Shown here piece by piece: positions 5,208 through 54,960 of a stretch of DNA of 64,000 bases. Source of the DNA: Thermoanaerobaculia bacterium (lineage in GTDB: Bacteria; Acidobacteriota; Thermoanaerobaculia; Multivoradales; UBA5704); contig DASZZM010000039.1 of assembly GCA_035544895.1 (NCBI GenBank), positions 61,007-125,006 of the forward strand. Reading direction: 5' to 3'. Position 1 is the first letter of the stretch. Each line of letters opens with the position of its first letter. The notes under the pieces were generated by a model that ran no database searches, was not told where the DNA came from, and saw only the letters and a list, made by a program, of their open reading frames with translations. Position numbers and translations under genes: made by a program.

Positions 5208-6155
5208 TTAGCTCACCGGCCGCCGCCCGCCATCAATGGGAGTTTGAACGTAATGGCTCTGCGACCCCATGGTGAGGGCGCCGGCTTCAAAATCCAAGTA
5301 GAGCAGGTCTTCGAACGGCCCGAGGTCGGCGCCTGGAGACGCGACCGTGATCCAGTCGGTGATCGCCGCGAGCACCTCGGCGCCGAGCGCCGTGTTGGTG
5401 GTGAACAGGAGCTCCTTGCCGAGGACTTCACCCGACCGGCTCATCTTGAGCTGGACCGCCAGGACACCCGAGAGTTTGCCGAGCCGTCCTTCGGGCACCT
5501 TGAGGCCGAAGAGCCGTCCGGCTGCGTCCTTCTTCGACCGCGCCTGGCGGAAATGGAAGCTCCTGGCCGTATCATCCTCGCCACCGAACATCAGCTGGTG
5601 GTCGGCGCACTGTTGGAACTTCGTCGCATAGTCGGGATCGGAGGCGAACCGTAGTTGTCGGATCGGGACTCGATCTTGCTTCGGCTCGACGAGCTCGCTA
5701 TAGGACCACAGATCTTGGTCAGGCTTGAAATCCTGCTGCAACTGGGTGCACGACTCCAGGGAAAGAGCAGCCGCGCCATCGCTGGTCCTTGTCCGGCTGC
5801 CTGTTGCCTTCGCCGGCGCGACGCCGCCACGAGCTGCAATCTCCGGCAGACTAAGCTTCGCGCACTGATAGTCGGGCCAAGGCCCACAATCGTAGAACGC
5901 GCAGTTGTTCCGATTAACGGGCCTGCCCGCCGTTCTGCAGCAGCACGAAGCCTCCAGGGCTGACCCGCAGAAGCTGTCCCGGCAAAAGGGCGAGCCCGTG
6001 GCGCAAAGCGGTGTGCACTTTGTGGTGTCCGCCACGCACGGGCAGGTGCACTTCGCTGAGCAGTCGTCCTGAGCGACCGCCGGGACCGTGAAGGCCAAGA
6101 CTCCCACCAGCACGGCAAGAGCGACAGTAGCTGGCTCTCGGTTCGTGGAGGACAT
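5208..6155 (-). CDS. Secreted protein with 14-cysteine N-terminal domain and possible TonB_C-like C-terminal domain
   Basis: GGAG upstream; signal peptide ending AVA-Q; 14 Cys in about 67 residues. C-terminal GVLAVQLKMSRSGEV...ALGAEVLAAITDW resembles the TonB C-terminal pattern (weak, by eye). Confidence 0.6.
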   Translation of the reverse strand: MSSTNREPATVALAVLVGVLAFTVPAVAQDDCSAKCTCPCVADTTKCTPLCATGSPFCRDSFCGSALEASCCCRTAGRPVNRNNCAFYDCGPWPDYQCAKLSLPEIAARGGVAPAKATGSRTRTSDGAAALSLESCTQLQQDFKPDQDLWSYSELVEPKQDRVPIRQLRFASDPDYATKFQQCADHQLMFGGEDDTARSFHFRQARSKKDAAGRLFGLKVPEGRLGKLSGVLAVQLKMSRSGEVLGKELLFTTNTALGAEVLAAITDWITVASPGADLGPFEDLLYLDFEAGALTMGSQSHYVQTPIDGGRRPVS

Positions 6156-8387: not shown

Positions 8388-8583
8388 GCACCCCCTGCGT
8401 GGTTCGTGATGGTTACCACGATTGTAGAACCAACATACATCTCTCGGGAGTCTTTTACCCGCGCGGCCCGTGCCAGCCTCCATCCCACCCGGATGACGAG
8501 GACGCTAACGGCTCGTGGAGCGGACACCCACCTGGTGCGTTTCAGGTTCTAAACGCCGGCCCACACGGCCACGCGGGGGATGC
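8388..8583 (+). ncRNA. ssrS: 6S RNA (SsrS)
   Basis: About 195 nt between zapA and rny (conserved synteny). 5' GCACCCCCTGCGTGGTTCGTG can pair with 3' CACGGCCACGCGGGGGATGC as a closing stem. Boundaries approximate. Confidence 0.75.
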
Positions 8584-8658: not shown

Positions 8659-10227
8659 GTGAATGATCAAGTCACACTGTTTGCAGCCGCCGCTCTGCTG
8701 GTCGGGGCCGGCGTCTTGCTCGTCTGGTTCGTGCTGCTGCGGCGGGCGGGAAAGCGCATGGCCGCGCAGGCCAAGCGGCAGGCCGGCAAGACCATCGAAG
8801 ACGCCGAGCGGCAGGCCGAGACGATCCGCCGCGAGGCCGAGGTCGCGGCGCGCGAGAAGCTTCTGCAGGCGCGCAGCGAGCACGAGGCGGCGCTGCGCAA
8901 GCGGCGGGTCGAGCTCGAGGCCCTGGAACGGCGGCTCACCCAGAAGGAGGACAACCTCGACAAGCGCGCCGACGAGGTGGCGCGCCGCGAGCGCGACCTG
9001 ACGCAGACCGACCGCGAGCTCACCGGCCGCGAAAAGGCCCTGGCCAGGCAAGAGACCGAGGTCGAGACAATCGCCGCGGAGGGGCGCGCCCGGCTCGAGC
9101 AGATCGCCGGATTGACCGCGCAGCAGGCGCGCGAAGAGCTGCTGCACGAGATGGAGGACGGAGCGCGAATCGAAGCCGCGCATATCGTCAAGCGCATCGA
9201 GGACGAAGCGCGCGAGCAGGGCGGCAAGCAAGCCCAGCGCATCATCGGGATGGCGGTGCAGCGCTCCGCCTCGGACTACGTGTCGGAGACCACCGTCTCG
9301 GTGGTGATGCTGCCGAGCGACGAGATGAAGGGGCGCATCATCGGCCGCGAAGGACGCAACATCCGCGCCCTCGAGATGGCGACCGGGGTCGATCTCATCG
9401 TCGACGATACGCCGGAGGCGGTGATCCTCTCCGGGTTCGATCCATACCGCCGCGAAGTCGCCAGGGTAGCGCTCGAGCGCCTGATCGGCGACGGCCGCAT
9501 CCATCCGGCCCGCATCGAAGAGGTGGTCGAGAAGGTCAAGGCCGAGCTCGACCAGAAGATCGTGCAGGAGGGGGAGTCGGCCCTCCTCGAGCTGGCGATC
9601 CCCGGCATGCACCCCGAGCTCATCCGGCTCCTGGGGCGCTTGCGCTACCGCACCTCCTACGGCCAGAACGTGCTGCAGCACAGCAAGGAGGTCGCCTTCC
9701 TGGCCGGCACCATGGCCGCGGAGCTCAGGGCCAACATCCAGGTCGCCCGCCGCGCCGGCCTGGTGCACGACATCGGCAAGGCCATCGACCGCGAGATGGA
9801 CGGCACCCATCTGCAAATCGGCATCGACCTGCTGCGCAAGTACGGAGAGAACGAAGACGTGGTGCACGCGATGGCCTGCCACCATGGCGACTACGACCCG
9901 CAGACGGTCGAGGCGGTTCTGGTGACCGCCGCCGACGCGCTCTCCGCGGCCCGCCCCGGGGCCCGCCGCGAGATCCTCGAGACCTATGTCAAGCGCCTGG
10001 AGAAGCTCGAAGAGATCGCCTCCGGCTTCAAGGGGGTGCAGAAGACCTTCGCCATCCAGGCCGGCCGCGAGATCCGCATCATCGTCGACAGCGGCAAGAT
10101 CAGCGACGAGCAGTCGCTCTGGCTCTCCAAAGACATCGCGCGCAAGATCGAGGCGGAGCTGACTTATCCCGGGCAGATCAAGGTGACGGTCATCCGCGAG
10201 ACCCGCTCCATCGAGTACGCGCGGTGA
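8659..10227 (+). CDS. rny: Ribonuclease Y
   Basis: N-terminal TM helix, coiled coil, KH ([17 protein letters not shown]), HD domain (GLVHDIGKA), C-terminal [12 protein letters not shown]. Confidence 0.97.
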
Positions 10228-12985: not shown

Positions 12986-13867
12986 GTGGCAGTGCGCCTT
13001 GATCAGTTGCTGGTCGAGCGCGGGTTCTTTCCCAGCCGTGAGCAGGCGCGGCGCGCGGTCATGGCCGGCACGGTCGAGGTCGAGGGACGGCGGGTGGACA
13101 AGCCGGGGACCGCGGTCGCCGCGGACGCGCGGCTGGCGGTGGCCGCCGGCCGGGAACCCTACGCGTCGCGGGCCGGGCGCAAGCTGGCGGCCGCGCTCGA
13201 TCACTTCGCCGTCGACCCGGCAGGCTGGGTGTGCCTCGACGTGGGAGCGTCCACCGGCGGCTTCACCGATTGTCTCCTGCAGAGGAGAGCGGCCCGGGTC
13301 TACGCGCTCGACGTCGGTTACGGCCAGCTCGATCAGCAGCTGCGCAACGACCCGCGCGTGGTCGTCATGGAGCGCGTCAACGCCCGCCACCTCGCCCCCG
13401 ATGCGCTGCCGGAAAGCTGCCGGCTCGCCACCGTCGACGTGTCGTTCATCTCGCTGCGCAAGATCGTTCCAGCCCTGCTGCCGCACCTCGTGCCGGGCGG
13501 ACTGCTGCTGGCACTAATCAAGCCCCAGTTCGAAGCCGGACGCGGCGCCGTGGGCAAAGGAGGCATCCTGCGCGACGAATCCCTGCGCCGGCAAGTGATC
13601 CGCGACTGTGCCGCAGCGCTCGCCCTCGTTCTTGACACGCCTCCGCGAGGAGCCGCAAATGGGCCCGGATCCAAGGCGCACGAAGGCCGGACGACCGAGG
13701 CGTACAACGAGTACGTTGAGGGCGTCCGGCCGAGTGCAACGCCGGAGACGGGTCCATTTCCGGCTCCGCAGCCGAGCCTGGAGCTCTTGGGGACTTACGA
13801 CTCCCCGGTTGCCGGCAGCGGCGGCAACCGCGAGGCCTTCGCGCTGCTGCGGCGGACCGGGCCATGA
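12986..13867 (+). CDS. tlyA: TlyA family rRNA 2'-O-methyltransferase, with an ~50-aa in-frame insertion near the C-terminus
   Basis: S4 domain [10 protein letters not shown]; YASRAGRKL; [12 protein letters not shown]; DVSFISL; LIKPQFEAG; SP..G..GNRE. Adjacent to nadK. Confidence 0.92.
13650..13766. repeat. Palindromic element with terminal inverted repeats inside tlyA
   Basis: Left GAGCCGCAAATGGGCCC (13650-13666); reverse complement of 13750-13766 is GAGCCGGAAATGGACCC (15/17). Internal GGCGTAC-AACGA-GTACGTT hairpin. Confidence 0.75.
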
Positions 13868-14754
13868 GCCGCCGGCGCAAGCTGCAACGCATCGGGGTGG
13901 TGGCCAAGGTAGGCAGCCCGGAAGCGGTCGACGCCGCCGGCGAGCTGGCCGAATGGCTGACCCGGCGCAGCGTCCAAGTCGCGCTCGATTCCGCAACCCT
14001 CGCCGCCAAGAGCTCGTCGGCCGAGACCTTCGAGCCGGGCGCCGCCTATGACCTGGTGATCGTGCTGGGGGGCGACGGCACCCTGCTGGCGGTGGCGCGC
14101 GGCCTGGGCGACGGAGTGCCGATCCTGGGCGTCAACCTGGGGAATCTCGGCTTCCTGACCGAGATCAACCGCGGCGAGCTCTACCCGGCCATGGTCCAGG
14201 TGCTGGCGGGCAAGTTCGACGTCGAGGCCAGAAAGCTCCTCGACGTCGAGCTGCGGCGGCGCGGCGACGGTCCGCTGCGCTACCGCGTGTTCAACGACGC
14301 GGTGATCACCAAGAGCGCGCTCTCCCGCATCATCGAGCTGACGCTCGAGGTCGACGGGCACCTGATCGCTCGCTACCGCTCGGACGGCCTGATCATCTCC
14401 TCGCCGACCGGCTCGACCGCCTACAACCTCTCGGCCGGAGGGCCGATCCTCAATCCGTTGCTGCCGGTGACCGTGCTGACCCCGATCTGCCCGCATGCCT
14501 TGTCGCTGCGTCCCATCGTGGTGCCAGGCGCGAGCCTCGTCGAGGTCACGCTGGAGACTCAGCGCGAGGAGGTCTTCCTCACCCTGGACGGCCAGGAGGG
14601 GACCGCCATCGGCTACCACGATACGGTCGCGGTGACGCGCAGCAGCGCGGCGATTCACCTGGTCAAGGTCAGCGAGCGCAGCTTCTATGACAGCCTGCGG
14701 GAGAAGCTTCGCTGGGGGGGCCTCCATCCTCCGCCGGAAGGAAGGACCCCCTGA
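13864..14754 (+). CDS. nadK: NAD(+) kinase
   Basis: [50 protein letters not shown] motifs. Confidence 0.95.
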
Positions 14755-14876: not shown

Positions 14877-17800
14877 GTGCGGCGCTGGCTGGTGCGCCCG
14901 GTCGTCTGGACGAGCTTCCTGATCGTCGTGCTGGTGGCGGGCGCGATCGGCTTCGTGCACAGCGAGTACGCGCTGCGCGAGCTTGCGGATCTGGTGCGGT
15001 CACGCCTCTCTGACGCCGTCGAACGCGAGGTGCAGCTCTCCTCGGTCGATTACGACCTGTGGACGCCGCGGCCGTCGCTCGAGCTGCACGACCTGGTCAT
15101 CCCCGGGCCGCGGCGCGGCGACCGCCCGGTGCTGCGCGCCTCGCTGGTGCGCCTCCAGGTCACCTGGACAGCGCTGCGCAGCAAGGTCTTCGACCTCGAG
15201 CAGGTCGAGATCGTCAGGCCGCAGATCTACCTGGAGCTCTACCGCGACGGCAGCAGCAACCTGCCGCGCCCCCGGCGCACCGCCAAGGCGCCGCGCTTCG
15301 AGGTGCGCATCGGGCATCTCGCGCTCGAGGACGGCGTCCTGCAGCTCAACGAGCGCCGCTCGCCGCTCGCGGTCGAGGCCCGCGCGCTGTGGGGGCGGGC
15401 GGTGGGGGTCGAGGAAACGGGCAGCAAGGAGCTGCGCCTCGACGCTCGGCTCACCACCCAGGACCTGCGGGTCACCCTGCCCAACGCGCGTCCCTACCCG
15501 TTCACGTTTTCGGCGCGCGGCAGCGTCACCGGCGGGAAAGTGACCATCGCCAGGGCCCTGCTCTCCGCCCCCGAGCTCAGCCTGGCGGCCAGCGGCGCGA
15601 TCGGCTGGGGCAAACAAAACCAGGTGGAGCTCGCGGTCAACGGCACGGCCGCGGCCCGCTGGGTCAACGACGTCGGCTTCATGGCCGAGCCGATCGACGG
15701 TCCGGCTTCGTTCGCCGGGCGCTTCGAGCTGCGCGGTGGCGACTGGCGCTACTGGGGCACGCTGGAGTCGCCCCGCGTCGCCGTCTTGCGGCGGCAGTTC
15801 CTCGATCTCGCGGGCGACTTCGCGGGCGACTCGCGGCGCCTCACCGTCGGCCTGCGGCGGGCGCGCTATGCCGACGGCGACATCACCGGCCGGGTGGTGA
15901 TCGAGACCGGCGCGGCACCCGGCCCGCGCGGCGGCCGGCCGGTCGAGCTCGATCTCCTGGTGCGCGGCCTGGCGCTGCAGCCTTTCCTCGCCGATCTGTT
16001 TCCGCGCCAGTTCGCCGGTCCGGGAGGGCCGGTGGTCGAGCTCTCGGGGCGGGCAAGCGGCCGCGTCCGCTACCGCTTCCCGAGCGCCGAGTGGCGGCTC
16101 GGCGCCGGTACTGCCGGCCTGCGGCTCGAAGGGGGTGCGGCGGCGTTGCCCGGCCGCCCGGGCCTGGCGGTGGGAGGCGAGCTGCCGCTCGCCCTCGCCC
16201 AGGGCGTGCTGACCGCCGGCGACGTCGTGCTGACCGCGCCCGGCCAGCAGGCCACTGTCAGCGCTTTCCGCTACGACTTGCTGCGCGACGCGGGGCGCCT
16301 CGACTACCGGCTGACGAGCGGTGACACCGGCGGGCTCATCCCGCTGTTCCCGCCGGTGCGGCCCAAGCCGGGCGCGCCGCCGCCGGTCCAGGCCTCGCCC
16401 GTCTGGCTGCCCACCGCCGGCCACGGCACGGCCTCCGGCGCCGTGACCATCACCCCCACCGGCTATTCGGCGCGCATGGACCTCGACCTGCGGCAGGTGG
16501 CGAGCCCCGCCCTGGGCTCGGCCGACCGCCTGCACGGCGGCCTCACCATCGAGCCGCTGGCCATCGAGGGCCTGCGCCTGGAAGCGAGCGCCGGCGGAGG
16601 CGCCTTGCTGGTGACCGGCAGGATCCCGCTGGCGCGCGCAGGGCGCGCCGAGCCCGACGAGCCGATCCAGCTCGGGATCGATGCTTCCGACTGGCCCGCG
16701 GCCGGGCTTGCCCCCTATCTGCCGGCCGGGTTTCCGGTGGCTGGCGTGCCGGGCAGCGACCCGGCGCATGCCGTCGAGCTGCGCGGCGCGGTCTCCGGCC
16801 GGCTGGACCTTGGCGGCAATTTCGAGCGGCTCACCGGCCGCGGCGACGTCGATGCCAGCGGAGTCGTCGTCTCAGGAGTCCAGCTCGGGCGGGTGCGCGG
16901 CGAGCTGGCTTTCGACCCTGGCCGCTTCACGGTCGAAGGCGGCCTGATCGACAGCCCCGCCGGCAAGGCCGTGGTGCGCGGGACCTTCGAGCGGGCGAGC
17001 GGGGTGGTCGACGCGACCATCGACGCGCCTTCCCTCTCGCTTGCCGCCGAGCCGTTGCGCGGCGCCTCGAGCGGCACCGGTCTGACCGGCCGCATCGCCC
17101 TGATGGCGGCGGCGAGCGGCACCCTGGACCGGCCGCGGGCAATGCTCACCCTGCGCGGGCAGGGGCTGGCGGTCAACGGCCGCCCGCTGGCCGGCGCCGT
17201 GCGCGGCGCAGCGCCGTCAGGCGCATCCAATCAATCGCCGGCAGGCGCATCCAGTCAATTGCCTCCAGGCGCGTCATCTAGTCAATCGCCCTCAGGCGCG
17301 CCCTCGCCATCCAGCCCCCAGCCGTCCGGCGAGGCCCAGGTGACGGTCTCCTTGAGCGATGGGACACTGCGCGCCAGCGGGGCGCTGGCCGGCCTGCTGT
17401 CCTTCGAGGGTGGCGGCAGGCTCGACCGCCGGCGCGGCGGCATCACGCTCGACGTGCGCAGCAACGATCTCGGCGGGCTCCTCCGCCTCGCCGCCACGCC
17501 CCAGATGCCGGATCTCACCGGCTCGTTCGCCGGTTCGCTGGTCGTCGACGCCGATCTGGCGGCGGGGACCTACGGCGGAGAGCTGCGCCTGGCCGATCTG
17601 CGGGCCGAGTACGCGGGCAGGAAGATCGCCAACCGCGAGCCCGTCGTGGCCAGCTTCTCTTCTGCGCGCCTGGTGATCCGCTCTTTCTACCTGGGCGAAA
17701 CGGGCGCCGACACCGAGCTCTTCGTTTCCGGCAGCATCGGCCTCGGTTCCGGCCAACCGCTCGACCTGCGGCTGCAGAGCACGATCTCGGCCTCGTGGGC

Positions 17801-53324: not shown

Positions 53325-54960
53325 GGCTGGCGACGGCCAGCAGGGCCGCGGCGAGGGCGAGGTAGAGGAGGGGGTGGACGGCGGGTCGGGGGGCGGAGAG
53401 GCAGGTGAAGTCGAGCAGCGCGACGCGGTTCATCGGGCCGCAGTACCAGAGGAGAAGGTAGACGATCTCGAAAAGGCGGGGCGAGCCGCTGGCGGCGCCG
53501 AGGGCGAGGGCGAGGCTGGGGACGAAAAGGCAGCCCGCGAGCCAGCCCGTGAGGCCGGCGGCGTCGCTGGCGAAGGCAAGCCGGAGCGCCACGCCGGCGC
53601 CGGCGGCCGCGGCGACCAGGACTCCGGCGGCCCAGATCGCGGCGGCGTGCCGCCATGGAGAGCTGGCGCCGGCAACGATGAGCTCCCGGGTTCCGTGCCG
53701 AGTCTCGCGGGTGCCCATGGCCGAGAAGAGCGGCAGAGGCCAGATCCAGGCCAGCGCGAGCAGGGTGCCGCGGGCCTCGCCCGCGGGCACCGCCAGGCCA
53801 GCCACCACGAGCGCGGCCGCGCCGGCGAACCACCAGCGGCTGCGCCCCTTGACCATCAGCCTGACCTCGGCCGCCACGAGGACGGCGGCGCCGCCGCCTA
53901 AGCGCCGGGCAGCGACCCGGCGCGCCAGAATCGACCGCTGGGCAGGGACCCAGAGCGCCAGAATTGATTGCCGGGCAGCGACCCGGCGCGCCAGAATCGA
54001 CCGCTGGGCAGGGACCCAGCGCGTCAGGATCGACCGCCGGACATGGACCCGGCGCCGGCGCGGCGCGGCGGGCGCCAGCCCAGGCGTGGACGGGGGCGAC
54101 CTCTCGCCGCGCGGCCGCTCGCGTGCCGGATCGAAACGGGAGAAGGGGAGGGCGGCCAAGAGGGCCAGGGCGGCAGCGGCCGCGAGCCAGGTCAACCGGC
54201 GCGCCGCCAGCCCGGTGGTCCACGCGACCCCCTGCCAGGTAAAGGCGGCGCGGATATCGGCGCCCGGGCCGAGATTGAGCGACAGTCCTCTCTCTTTGCC
54301 ATCGGCTGTAGGGCCGAGGTAACGCTCCAGGCTGGCGTGCACGGCGCCGATCCCGACGAGGTCGCCGGCGGGCACCAGGATGGAGGCGCTGATAGCGGCG
54401 GTCCACAGGAAGAAATACAGGACGTTGCCCAGCGTGCCGCGCAGCCAGCTCACGGCCTCGAAGAAGACCGCGGCGGCGGCCGTCAGAGCGATCGGCGGCA
54501 GCGCCAGCCAGGCGATGGGGGCGAGCAGCGCGGCCAGGTCGAGCCGGCGGTCTTCGCCGGCAAGGAGTTGCAGCACGGCCGCCGCCAGCGCCAGAAGCGC
54601 GACGATCACCGCTAAGAGCAGGAAGTTCGACAGTGCCTTGCCCATGGTGTAGGCGCGGCGCGACAAGGGAGTCGCGGCAAGAATCTCACCCACTCCCGTC
54701 CGCCGGTCCCACTCGAGGGTGTTCTTGACCAGGTAGAAACCGGCCAGTGGAAGGAGCGTGCCGATGAAGAGACCCATCAGAGTCCCCATCCATGCCGAGT
54801 TGAGCACGCCGCGCTGCCCGGCAATGCTCAGGTGGACGTAGCCGGCGTTGATCAGGTAGCAGAAATAGAGGGTCGCCGCCAGGGTGAGGAGGAAGCTGGA
54901 CCGCCGCGCCCGCTCCCGGAAATCGGCGCGCGCCAGCTCGGCCACCGCCCGTGAGCTCAC
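53296..54960 (-). CDS. ABC-2-type exporter permease (double-domain) with internal repeat insertion
   Basis: LARADFRER.RR; EILAATPLSR..Y..GK; multiple TM helices; start overlaps the ABC ATPase stop. Confidence 0.8.
   Translation of the reverse strand: MSSRAVAELARADFRERARRSSFLLTLAATLYFCYLINAGYVHLSIAGQRGVLNSAWMGTLMGLFIGTLLPLAGFYLVKNTLEWDRRTGVGEILAATPLSRRAYTMGKALSNFLLLAVIVALLALAAAVLQLLAGEDRRLDLAALLAPIAWLALPPIALTAAAAVFFEAVSWLRGTLGNVLYFFLWTAAISASILVPAGDLVGIGAVHASLERYLGPTADGKERGLSLNLGPGADIRAAFTWQGVAWTTGLAARRLTWLAAAAALALLAALPFSRFDPARERPRGERSPPSTPGLAPAAPRRRRVHVRRSILTRWVPAQRSILARRVAARQSILALWVPAQRSILARRVAARRLGGGAAVLVAAEVRLMVKGRSRWWFAGAAALVVAGLAVPAGEARGTLLALAWIWPLPLFSAMGTRETRHGTRELIVAGASSPWRHAAAIWAAGVLVAAAAGAGVALRLAFASDAAGLTGWLAGCLFVPSLALALGAASGSPRLFEIVYLLLWYCGPMNRVALLDFTCLSAPRPAVHPLLYLALAAALLAVASLIRRRQTYT
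53905..54036 (-). repeat. 2 x 66-bp (4 x 33-bp degenerate) tandem repeat within the permease
   Basis: Units 53905-53970 and 53971-54036; protein (R/Q)SIL(T/A)(R/L)WVPAQRSILARRVAAR twice. Confidence 0.9.

Follow-up and report, generated by a model that had tools for sequence, protein, structure and literature searches.

The notion that palindromic DNA can insert in frame into protein-coding genes is 25 years old, and the best-documented cases come from Rickettsia and a few proteobacteria. The Rickettsia palindromic elements (RPEs) were reportedly described by Ogata et al. in 2000 and 2002. Bacterial MITEs of this sort, such as ERIC, the 107-bp Correia element, YPAL, QMITE1 and, as the extreme case, RPEs, are 100-200 bp long; they have terminal repeats and TA termini, form long stem-loops and contain open reading frames that become fused to genes (PMC2229807; PMC10969869). 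An RPE-containing guanylate kinase is both translated and active (PMC2229807; PMC10969869), and nearly half of the copies in three RPE families are genic (PMC10969869), while the target duplication of RPEs is listed as unknown (PMC2229807, Table 1). REPs are shorter palindromic repeats, 20-40 bp long, that begin with a GTAG or CGTC head and are extragenic (PMC3733652). Our literature search returned no account of in-frame palindromic insertions from Thermoanaerobaculia or Acidobacteria.

The stretch of DNA considered here, referred to as the window, comprises 64 kb of a Thermoanaerobaculia genome and includes a tlyA gene with an unusual internal segment (Table 1). The initial annotation regarded this segment as an RPE-like, coding-tolerant MITE outside Rickettsia, an idea that holds up well: the repeat is palindromic and non-autonomous, occurs between genes as well as in frame in at least eight of them, and accounts for a 180-nt difference between empty and filled alleles. 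In all probability, the segment is an old and immobilised copy of an undescribed MITE family of Thermoanaerobaculia-like soil Acidobacteriota, translated as a disordered loop of TlyA. The intact element would be a gene-free, 178-bp hairpin palindrome that duplicates 2 bp upon insertion, usually TA in the context C-TA...TA-G, so that each insertion would add 180 nt or 60 codons. In one of the open frames, a genic copy would add a hydrophilic stretch with many Gly, Pro, Ser and Thr residues, and it would persist where this stretch forms part of a surface loop or a linker; selection would purge other insertions. In the tlyA copy the right terminal repeat would later have disappeared and the left one decayed, with the enzyme core and the catalytic tetrad left intact.

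Table 1. The tlyA gene and the parts of the repeat copy within it (positions in the 64-kb window).
Feature	Position	Strand	Remarks
tlyA, 16S/23S rRNA cytidine-2'-O-methyltransferase, 293 aa	12986..13867	+	S4 + FtsJ domains
Degenerate copy of the 178-bp palindromic repeat	13622..13776	+	read as residues 213-264, in the frame customary for the family
Left terminal inverted repeat, remnant	13622..13635	+	GCCCTCGTTCTTGA here, canonical GCCCGCATTTCTCA; from alignments to canonical copies
Main stem, left arm	13649..13672	+	includes the 17-bp repeat; 24 nt, 83% complementary; consensus-structure helix 3
Inner stem, left arm	13685..13705	+	21 nt, 76% complementary; helices 5-6
Apical loop	13706..13710	+	AACGA here, TCGAA in the family consensus
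Inner stem, right arm	13711..13731	+	partner of 13685..13705
Main stem, right arm	13744..13767	+	partner of 13649..13672
Right junction	13773..13777	+	profile match ends at model position 167; alignments
Catalytic Glu283 codon (GAG, in GNREAF)	13832..13834	+	invariant column; chain residue 254 of 7S0S_B

The host gene encodes a TlyA by its domain content, with an S4 domain (Pfam, 2e-11) followed by an FtsJ/RrmJ-type domain (FtsJ, 1e-37) that carries a K-D-K-E tetrad. Its 3' end overlaps the NAD kinase gene (13864-14754) by 4 nt. The protein matches the structure of Mycobacterium tuberculosis TlyA (PDB 7S0S_B, 4e-50), with K66, D151, K179 and E283 aligned to chain residues 85, 170, 198 and 254; these we take to be K69, D154, K182 and E238 of the M. 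tuberculosis enzyme, provided that the chain has a 16-residue tag. All four columns are invariant in 55 orthologues. The best homologues come from metagenome-assembled genomes of Thermoanaerobaculia (Acidobacteriota) and nearly all are about 243 aa long, as against 293 aa in the window. Alignments with 12 and then 54 Thermoanaerobaculia orthologues attribute the difference to residues 213-264 (nt 13622-13777), which sit just after ...CAAAL, are absent from most orthologues and replace about four of their residues. The net gain of about 48 aa agrees with the roughly 50 extra residues first estimated, and the alignment to 7S0S_B is interrupted at the same place (query 3-206 on chain 21-225, query 268-289 on chain 239-260). 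The preservation of the frame through the insert was likewise read correctly at the outset, the open reading frame running uninterrupted from 12986 to 13867. Since Glu283 lies downstream of the insert, an active TlyA requires in-frame read-through of the element.

Structure prediction places the extra residues outside the core of the enzyme. In the AlphaFold2 model of TlyA, built from 55 sequences, the core is confident (mean pLDDT 81 overall) and the insert follows helix 198-217 of the methyltransferase fold and precedes strand 264-276, with residues 221-254 below a pLDDT of 50 and residues 218-263 devoid of secondary structure. Foldseek superimposes the model on the C-terminal domain structure 5EOV with a target-normalised TM-score (TMt) of 0.82 and an rmsd of 1.8 A. 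The simplest reading of the model is that the insert forms a disordered surface loop of about 48 residues in a working enzyme, the segment being presumably translated along with its host and presumably neutral.

At the DNA level, a profile of the repeat family matches the tlyA copy from 13617 to 13776 (nhmmer, E = 1.7e-32), covering model positions 5-167 of about 195, and alignments move the left boundary from 13628, where it had been drawn initially, to 13622. The dinucleotide that precedes the copy is TC (13620-13621) as opposed to the TA of canonical copies, and the peptide at the left end reads ALVLD instead of the ARISH of the family. On the right, the last 22-25 nt or so of the element are missing, including the terminal repeat TGAGAAATGCGGGC, together with some three to four host codons. 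The 17-bp inverted repeats noticed early on (13649-13665 and 13751-13767, 15 of 17 matching) are real; they are not terminal, being part of an internal stem with 24-nt arms, and the termini of the family lie further out. A 166-nt stretch of the element folds at -95.6 kcal/mol compared with -67.8 +/- 4.6 kcal/mol for shuffled sequences (z = -6.0), none of the 200 shuffles being as stable.

The element is a dispersed, multi-copy repeat in the genome from which the window derives. Sequencing run X1 contains a contig of 25,331 nt that is 100% identical to the window at a depth of 35.8, and this depth climbs to 190-675 over positions 13640-13779; separate X1 contigs at depths of 32.6-39.5 match the element only and then continue into unrelated sequence. 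A canonical copy taken from another locus (L019) behaves in the same way on X1 and X2, with zero depth outside 189 nt and peaks of about 1250-1360 over a background of about 36 on X1, and of about 950 over about 19 on X2. The ratios suggest in the order of 35-50 copies per genome, an approximate figure that derives from assembler word depth in metagenomes. In the 64-kb window itself blastn found no second copy. The one weak match, at 54036-54076, belongs to a different small repeat and was rejected.

Copies from other loci were drawn from the contigs of proteins identified in peptide searches and from a metagenome scan with a 21-nt core. A six-frame search recovered the element peptide in 13 other proteins, the 21-nt core CGAGGCGTACTCGAAGTACGT is present in 18 metagenome contigs, and the nhmmer profile recognises about 22 good copies in other soil-metagenome contigs. 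An earlier scan of the metagenomes with ATGGGCCCGGATCCAAGGC gave no match, because the tlyA copy has a C where the family has a T. A scan of a genome collection with the inner arms (AAATGGRCCCG...CGGGYCCATTT) produced seven matches, which proved to be chance palindromes in unrelated phyla and were set aside. The idea that the inner motif resembles repeats known from other bacteria was not supported: the element has no match in Rfam, plasmids or viral contigs. The copies share a set of constant features. Fourteen copies measure exactly 178 bp end to end, from GCCCGCATTTCTCA to TGAGAAATGCGGGC, with terminal inverted repeats of 14-16 bp, and in seven copies both ends are perfect. Subfamilies carry matched changes at the two ends (ATATTTCA/TGAAATAT; GCCGCC/GGCGGC), and length variants of 209, 217 and 223 bp represent either a divergent subfamily or copies with nested extra hairpin modules of 39-45 nt. 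The small size without a transposase gene, the terminal repeats, the many dispersed copies and a target duplication seen at one empty site are those of a MITE. Close TlyA orthologues mostly lack the segment and many other copies of its DNA exist in the same and in related genomes, which is the opposite of what the initial annotation had named as speaking against a mobile element.

More divergent relatives were also encountered (L024 150-367; proteins P0138-P0146). Here the peptide ends ARISH...CEKCG are kept while the interior differs, at about 60% peptide identity, and the ends of the L024 element have again changed in concert (GCCCGACCTTCTCA / TGAGAAGGTCGGGC); judging from these comparisons, a wider superfamily may be defined by its termini.

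The fold of the element is conserved along with its length. RNAalifold folds the family into one hairpin of 67 pairs, in which 96.3% of the cells are paired. Changes on both sides of a pair were observed for 27 pairs, compared with 10.5 +/- 2 in shuffled controls and 4-8 in slid controls, and these compensatory changes include both terminal repeats. The two strands are not equivalent: in 16 of 17 copies the plus strand folds more stably than the minus strand, and there are 47 G-T cells to 12 A-C cells.

With its canonical flanks, the element has two stop-free frames out of six, one in each orientation. Eight unrelated genes carry it in frame, all of them in the same orientation and the same frame: tlyA (window and L001), an RnfD-like gene (L012 and L016, at the same site), a GntR-SpoIIE gene in which the SpoIIE Pfam domain is split at profile position ~57/58, an RlmA-like methyltransferase, NadB (between FAD_binding_2 and Succ_DH_flav_C), a zf-HC2 anti-sigma factor, a membrane protein (P0123 and P0131) and a DUF4350 protein. 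In the contigs of the genes other than that for DUF4350, a coding signal or Pfam domains flank most of these copies on both sides, and the copies of the anti-sigma factor and L016 on one side. If the two open frames were equally likely, the chance that seven further insertions match the first would be about 0.008. P0137 is a possible genic copy in the other open frame. Among contigs that were found by DNA alone, which bear on the balance of intragenic and intergenic copies raised by the initial annotation, about one in 14 copies is clearly genic (nadB) and most are intergenic; the family is therefore mainly intergenic, with a minority of copies tolerated in genes. The orientation of the intergenic copies relative to neighbouring genes follows no consistent pattern.

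Searching again, now with the canonical peptide of each open frame, yielded mostly short, domainless ORFs in both frames; it missed earlier genic matches and does not amount to a census. These ORFs are likely miscalls on intergenic copies. Gene callers were seen to extend or invent ORFs over intergenic copies because the frames of the element are stop-free (L032 3749-3977, L033 554-739, L034 3653-3839, L010 10044-10232), examples of this artefact being P0121, P0122, P0132, P0133 and the N-terminus of the YceI protein P0130. For several of them, a signal peptide a short way downstream seems to mark the true start of the protein.

In each orientation the stop-free frame begins with ARISH and ends in a CxxC motif (CEKCG), both of which are encoded by the terminal repeats. 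The 60-codon unit, these stop-free frames and the use, by all eight domain-supported genic copies, of the one that yields a benign disordered peptide would fit a family that is adapted to life inside genes, beyond mere tolerance, which we consider unlikely. In such a setting the His...CxxC ends could clamp the base of the inserted loop, for instance via a metal ion, and a role of the hairpin in mRNA could lie behind the strand bias of the G-U pairing.

An insertion event can be followed in nadB. The filled allele (L025) reads TG|178 bp|TG, and a contig from X26 that is about 97% identical joins L025 position 1488 to 1670, skipping 181 nt with 1 nt in between, a net difference of 180 nt. The element therefore duplicates 2 bp and adds exactly 60 codons, the empty site being represented by one X26 contig (202 nt, depth 3.6) whose 2 bp are one base off the duplicated pair. 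A third nadB allele, from X27, has an internal deletion of 123 nt, or 41 codons. Across 19 copies the flanking dinucleotides are TA/TA in four, direct-only in four (CA/CA twice, TG/TG and TT/TT), inverted-only in two and non-matching in nine, the last of which are read here as products of the decay of TA. Most copies have flanks that are TA/TA or one transition away, often in the context C-TA...TA-G. The target may be looser than TA, given at least two CA/CA copies, one TG/TG and one TT/TT copy. IS630/Tc1-type transposases duplicate TA and have a preference for CTAG, and we infer that an enzyme of this type mobilised the family. The search for an insertion sequence with the same ends, proposed initially, turned up no autonomous element in about 360 kb of loci, nor were solitary or widely spaced termini present in the window or in 34 loci.

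The same dispersed repeat might instead have been moved by a hairpin-dependent, single-strand mechanism, either that of REP/REPIN sequences with a RAYT or that of an IS200/IS605-type TnpA, and not by an IS630-type DDE transposase. The pairing with compensatory changes along all 178 bp, well beyond the ends, would fit a single-stranded intermediate, as would the more stable folding of the plus strand and its excess of G-T over A-C. This route, which we deem improbable, is at odds with the length of the terminal inverted repeats and with a duplication of 2 bp at TA-like flanks. To our knowledge, REPINs and IS200/IS605 elements make no target duplication. A non-systematic look revealed no RAYT gene, and the ends of the element are without the GTAG or CGTC head described for REPs (PMC3733652).

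The tlyA copy of the family has a history of its own. A relative that shares the insertion (L001) matches the window at 97% identity over 15 kb of flanking sequence and has the same right junction, so the insertion is older than the split between the two. The L001 allele contains an extra 39-nt module and has lost the central 60 nt, while the window copy is without the module and one codon on the left; the module is a variant of the family that also occurs in L013, L016, L022 and L032. In the X2 allele, module and core are accompanied by a nested 35-nt insertion, the indels of +36, +31, +2 and -6 adding up to about +63 nt relative to the window. All element indels among the window, L001 and X2 alleles (-39, +60, -3 and about +63 nt) are multiples of 3. 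The tlyA copy is old and immobilised, with a decayed left end and a deleted right end.

If tlyA were inactive or dispensable, the insert could be no more than tolerated junk in a decaying gene. The gene is dispensable in many bacteria, which counts for such a reading, but the state of the locus makes it very unlikely: the frame has stayed open through three diverged alleles with indels that are all multiples of 3, the four catalytic residues and the whole TlyA fold are conserved, and the tlyA stop codon coincides in part with the start of the gene that follows, an arrangement shared by orthologues. Codon differences point in the same direction, with 9 synonymous and 4 non-synonymous differences between the window and L001, and 88 and 49, respectively, between the window and L002; the excess of synonymous differences indicates that the host gene is under constraint.

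A local origin of the hairpin by template switching or slippage, that is, a lineage-specific expansion of the loop with no mobile element involved, could draw on the extra 39 nt of L001, which contain an inverted copy of the adjacent GCGAGGAG, and on an unrelated 36-nt palindrome in the same loop in the L002 lineage. We attach hardly any weight to it and dropped it as refuted by the dispersed copies: dozens of copies of the element sequence exist at other places, each set in unrelated DNA and with defined termini, and the 39-nt module is itself a family variant. Equally negligible is an assembler misjoin through a repeat, a known cause of error in metagenome assemblies, given that the junctions recur in independent assemblies (the window, the 100% identical Logan X1 contig, the JGI contig L001 and the X2 contig) and that both flanks are halves of one conserved gene, in frame.

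Set against the described systems, the repeat represents a new bacterial MITE family whose in-frame insertions resemble those of RPEs. It shares with RPEs the size range (~100-200 bp), the palindromic, long stem-loop structure and the occurrence both between genes and in frame in conserved, unrelated genes in a fixed frame; the added peptide is compatible with the fold of the host protein, in TlyA as a low-confidence loop on a preserved fold, and old degenerate copies are common to related lineages. It differs in that its host is a free-living soil acidobacterium of 70% G+C, as opposed to an AT-rich obligate intracellular alphaproteobacterium, in its clear 14-16-bp termini, uniform 178-bp length and 2-bp duplication, in the predicted disorder of the peptide, and in the share of genic copies (about 1 in 14 versus nearly half). 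Because its host, a Thermoanaerobaculia-like acidobacterium by its best protein matches, lies outside Rickettsia, the family is not filed under RPEs; the likeness is one of behaviour.

The small size, terminal inverted repeats, 5'-TA-3' termini with duplication, long stem-loop, mostly intergenic location and occasional in-frame fusions are shared with ERIC/IRU, 107-bp Correia/NEMIS, YPAL/RU-2 and QMITE1 (PMC2229807; PMC10969869), from which the present family differs in that it belongs to another sequence family and phylum, adds exactly 60 codons, pairs with covariation over its full length and contains nested modules of 39-45 nt. The TA-like flanks in the C-TA...TA-G context recall MITEs of the IS630/Tc1-mariner type, but neither a transposase gene nor a full-length IS with the element termini was found in the loci searched. 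Abundance and hairpin potential are reminiscent of the short palindromic repeats of the REP/REPIN-RAYT system, from which the element is distinguished by its (C)TA-GCCCGC ends, the 178-bp unit with terminal inverted repeats, the 2-bp duplication and its in-frame presence in genes.

The process known from Rickettsia is thereby found in free-living, high-G+C soil Acidobacteriota, and with unusually clean evidence. This evidence includes the fixed 178-bp unit, the natural alleles of nadB that are empty, filled or deleted internally in frame, the 60-codon design, the bias towards one frame and the covariation over the whole length. The family is a tractable system in which to follow the addition of loops to conserved enzymes by selfish DNA, the later decay of these loops and the means by which the arms of the element stay complementary. 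It also explains odd, low-complexity inserts of 40-60 residues (ARISH...GPGSKAREG...PETGPFP...CEKCG) in annotated proteins of these metagenomes, and flags spurious short ORFs on intergenic copies.

Several other small features were observed along the way. The window contains a 6S (SsrS) RNA gene at 8389-8583 on the plus strand (Rfam RF00013, 60.3 bits, full length). A tandem array of 33-nt units (4.6 units at 53903-54055, with a further occurrence at 16749-16764) is made up of G+C-rich hairpins with the consensus CGCCGGGCAGGGACCCGGCGCGCCAGAATCGAC; the unit recurs as the 35-nt insertion nested in the X2 tlyA element, and looks like a second, REP-like repeat family in the lineage of the window. 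Between the glycosyltransferase and Trm112-like genes, L001 has 175 nt (9407-9581, corresponding to window position ~12565) that are absent from the window; they have no Rfam match, are unlike the 178-bp element and may be another small mobile insertion. About 115 nt of L019 (9334-9448) match Rfam models weakly and below threshold, namely Ms_IGR-7 and a miRNA precursor, with both strands involved, a pattern typical of yet another palindromic repeat. Finally, the 71% identical TlyA orthologue of L002 (protein P0003, ~5990-6030) has a 12-residue insert, RSEPGAKAFAPW, in the loop that bears the element in the window. It is encoded by the short palindrome GGCGCGAA-AGCC-TTCGCGCC, and an orthologue with the same AAALAGLG/LELLG flanking motifs (P0066) is without it; this loop of TlyA seems to accept palindromic insertions repeatedly.
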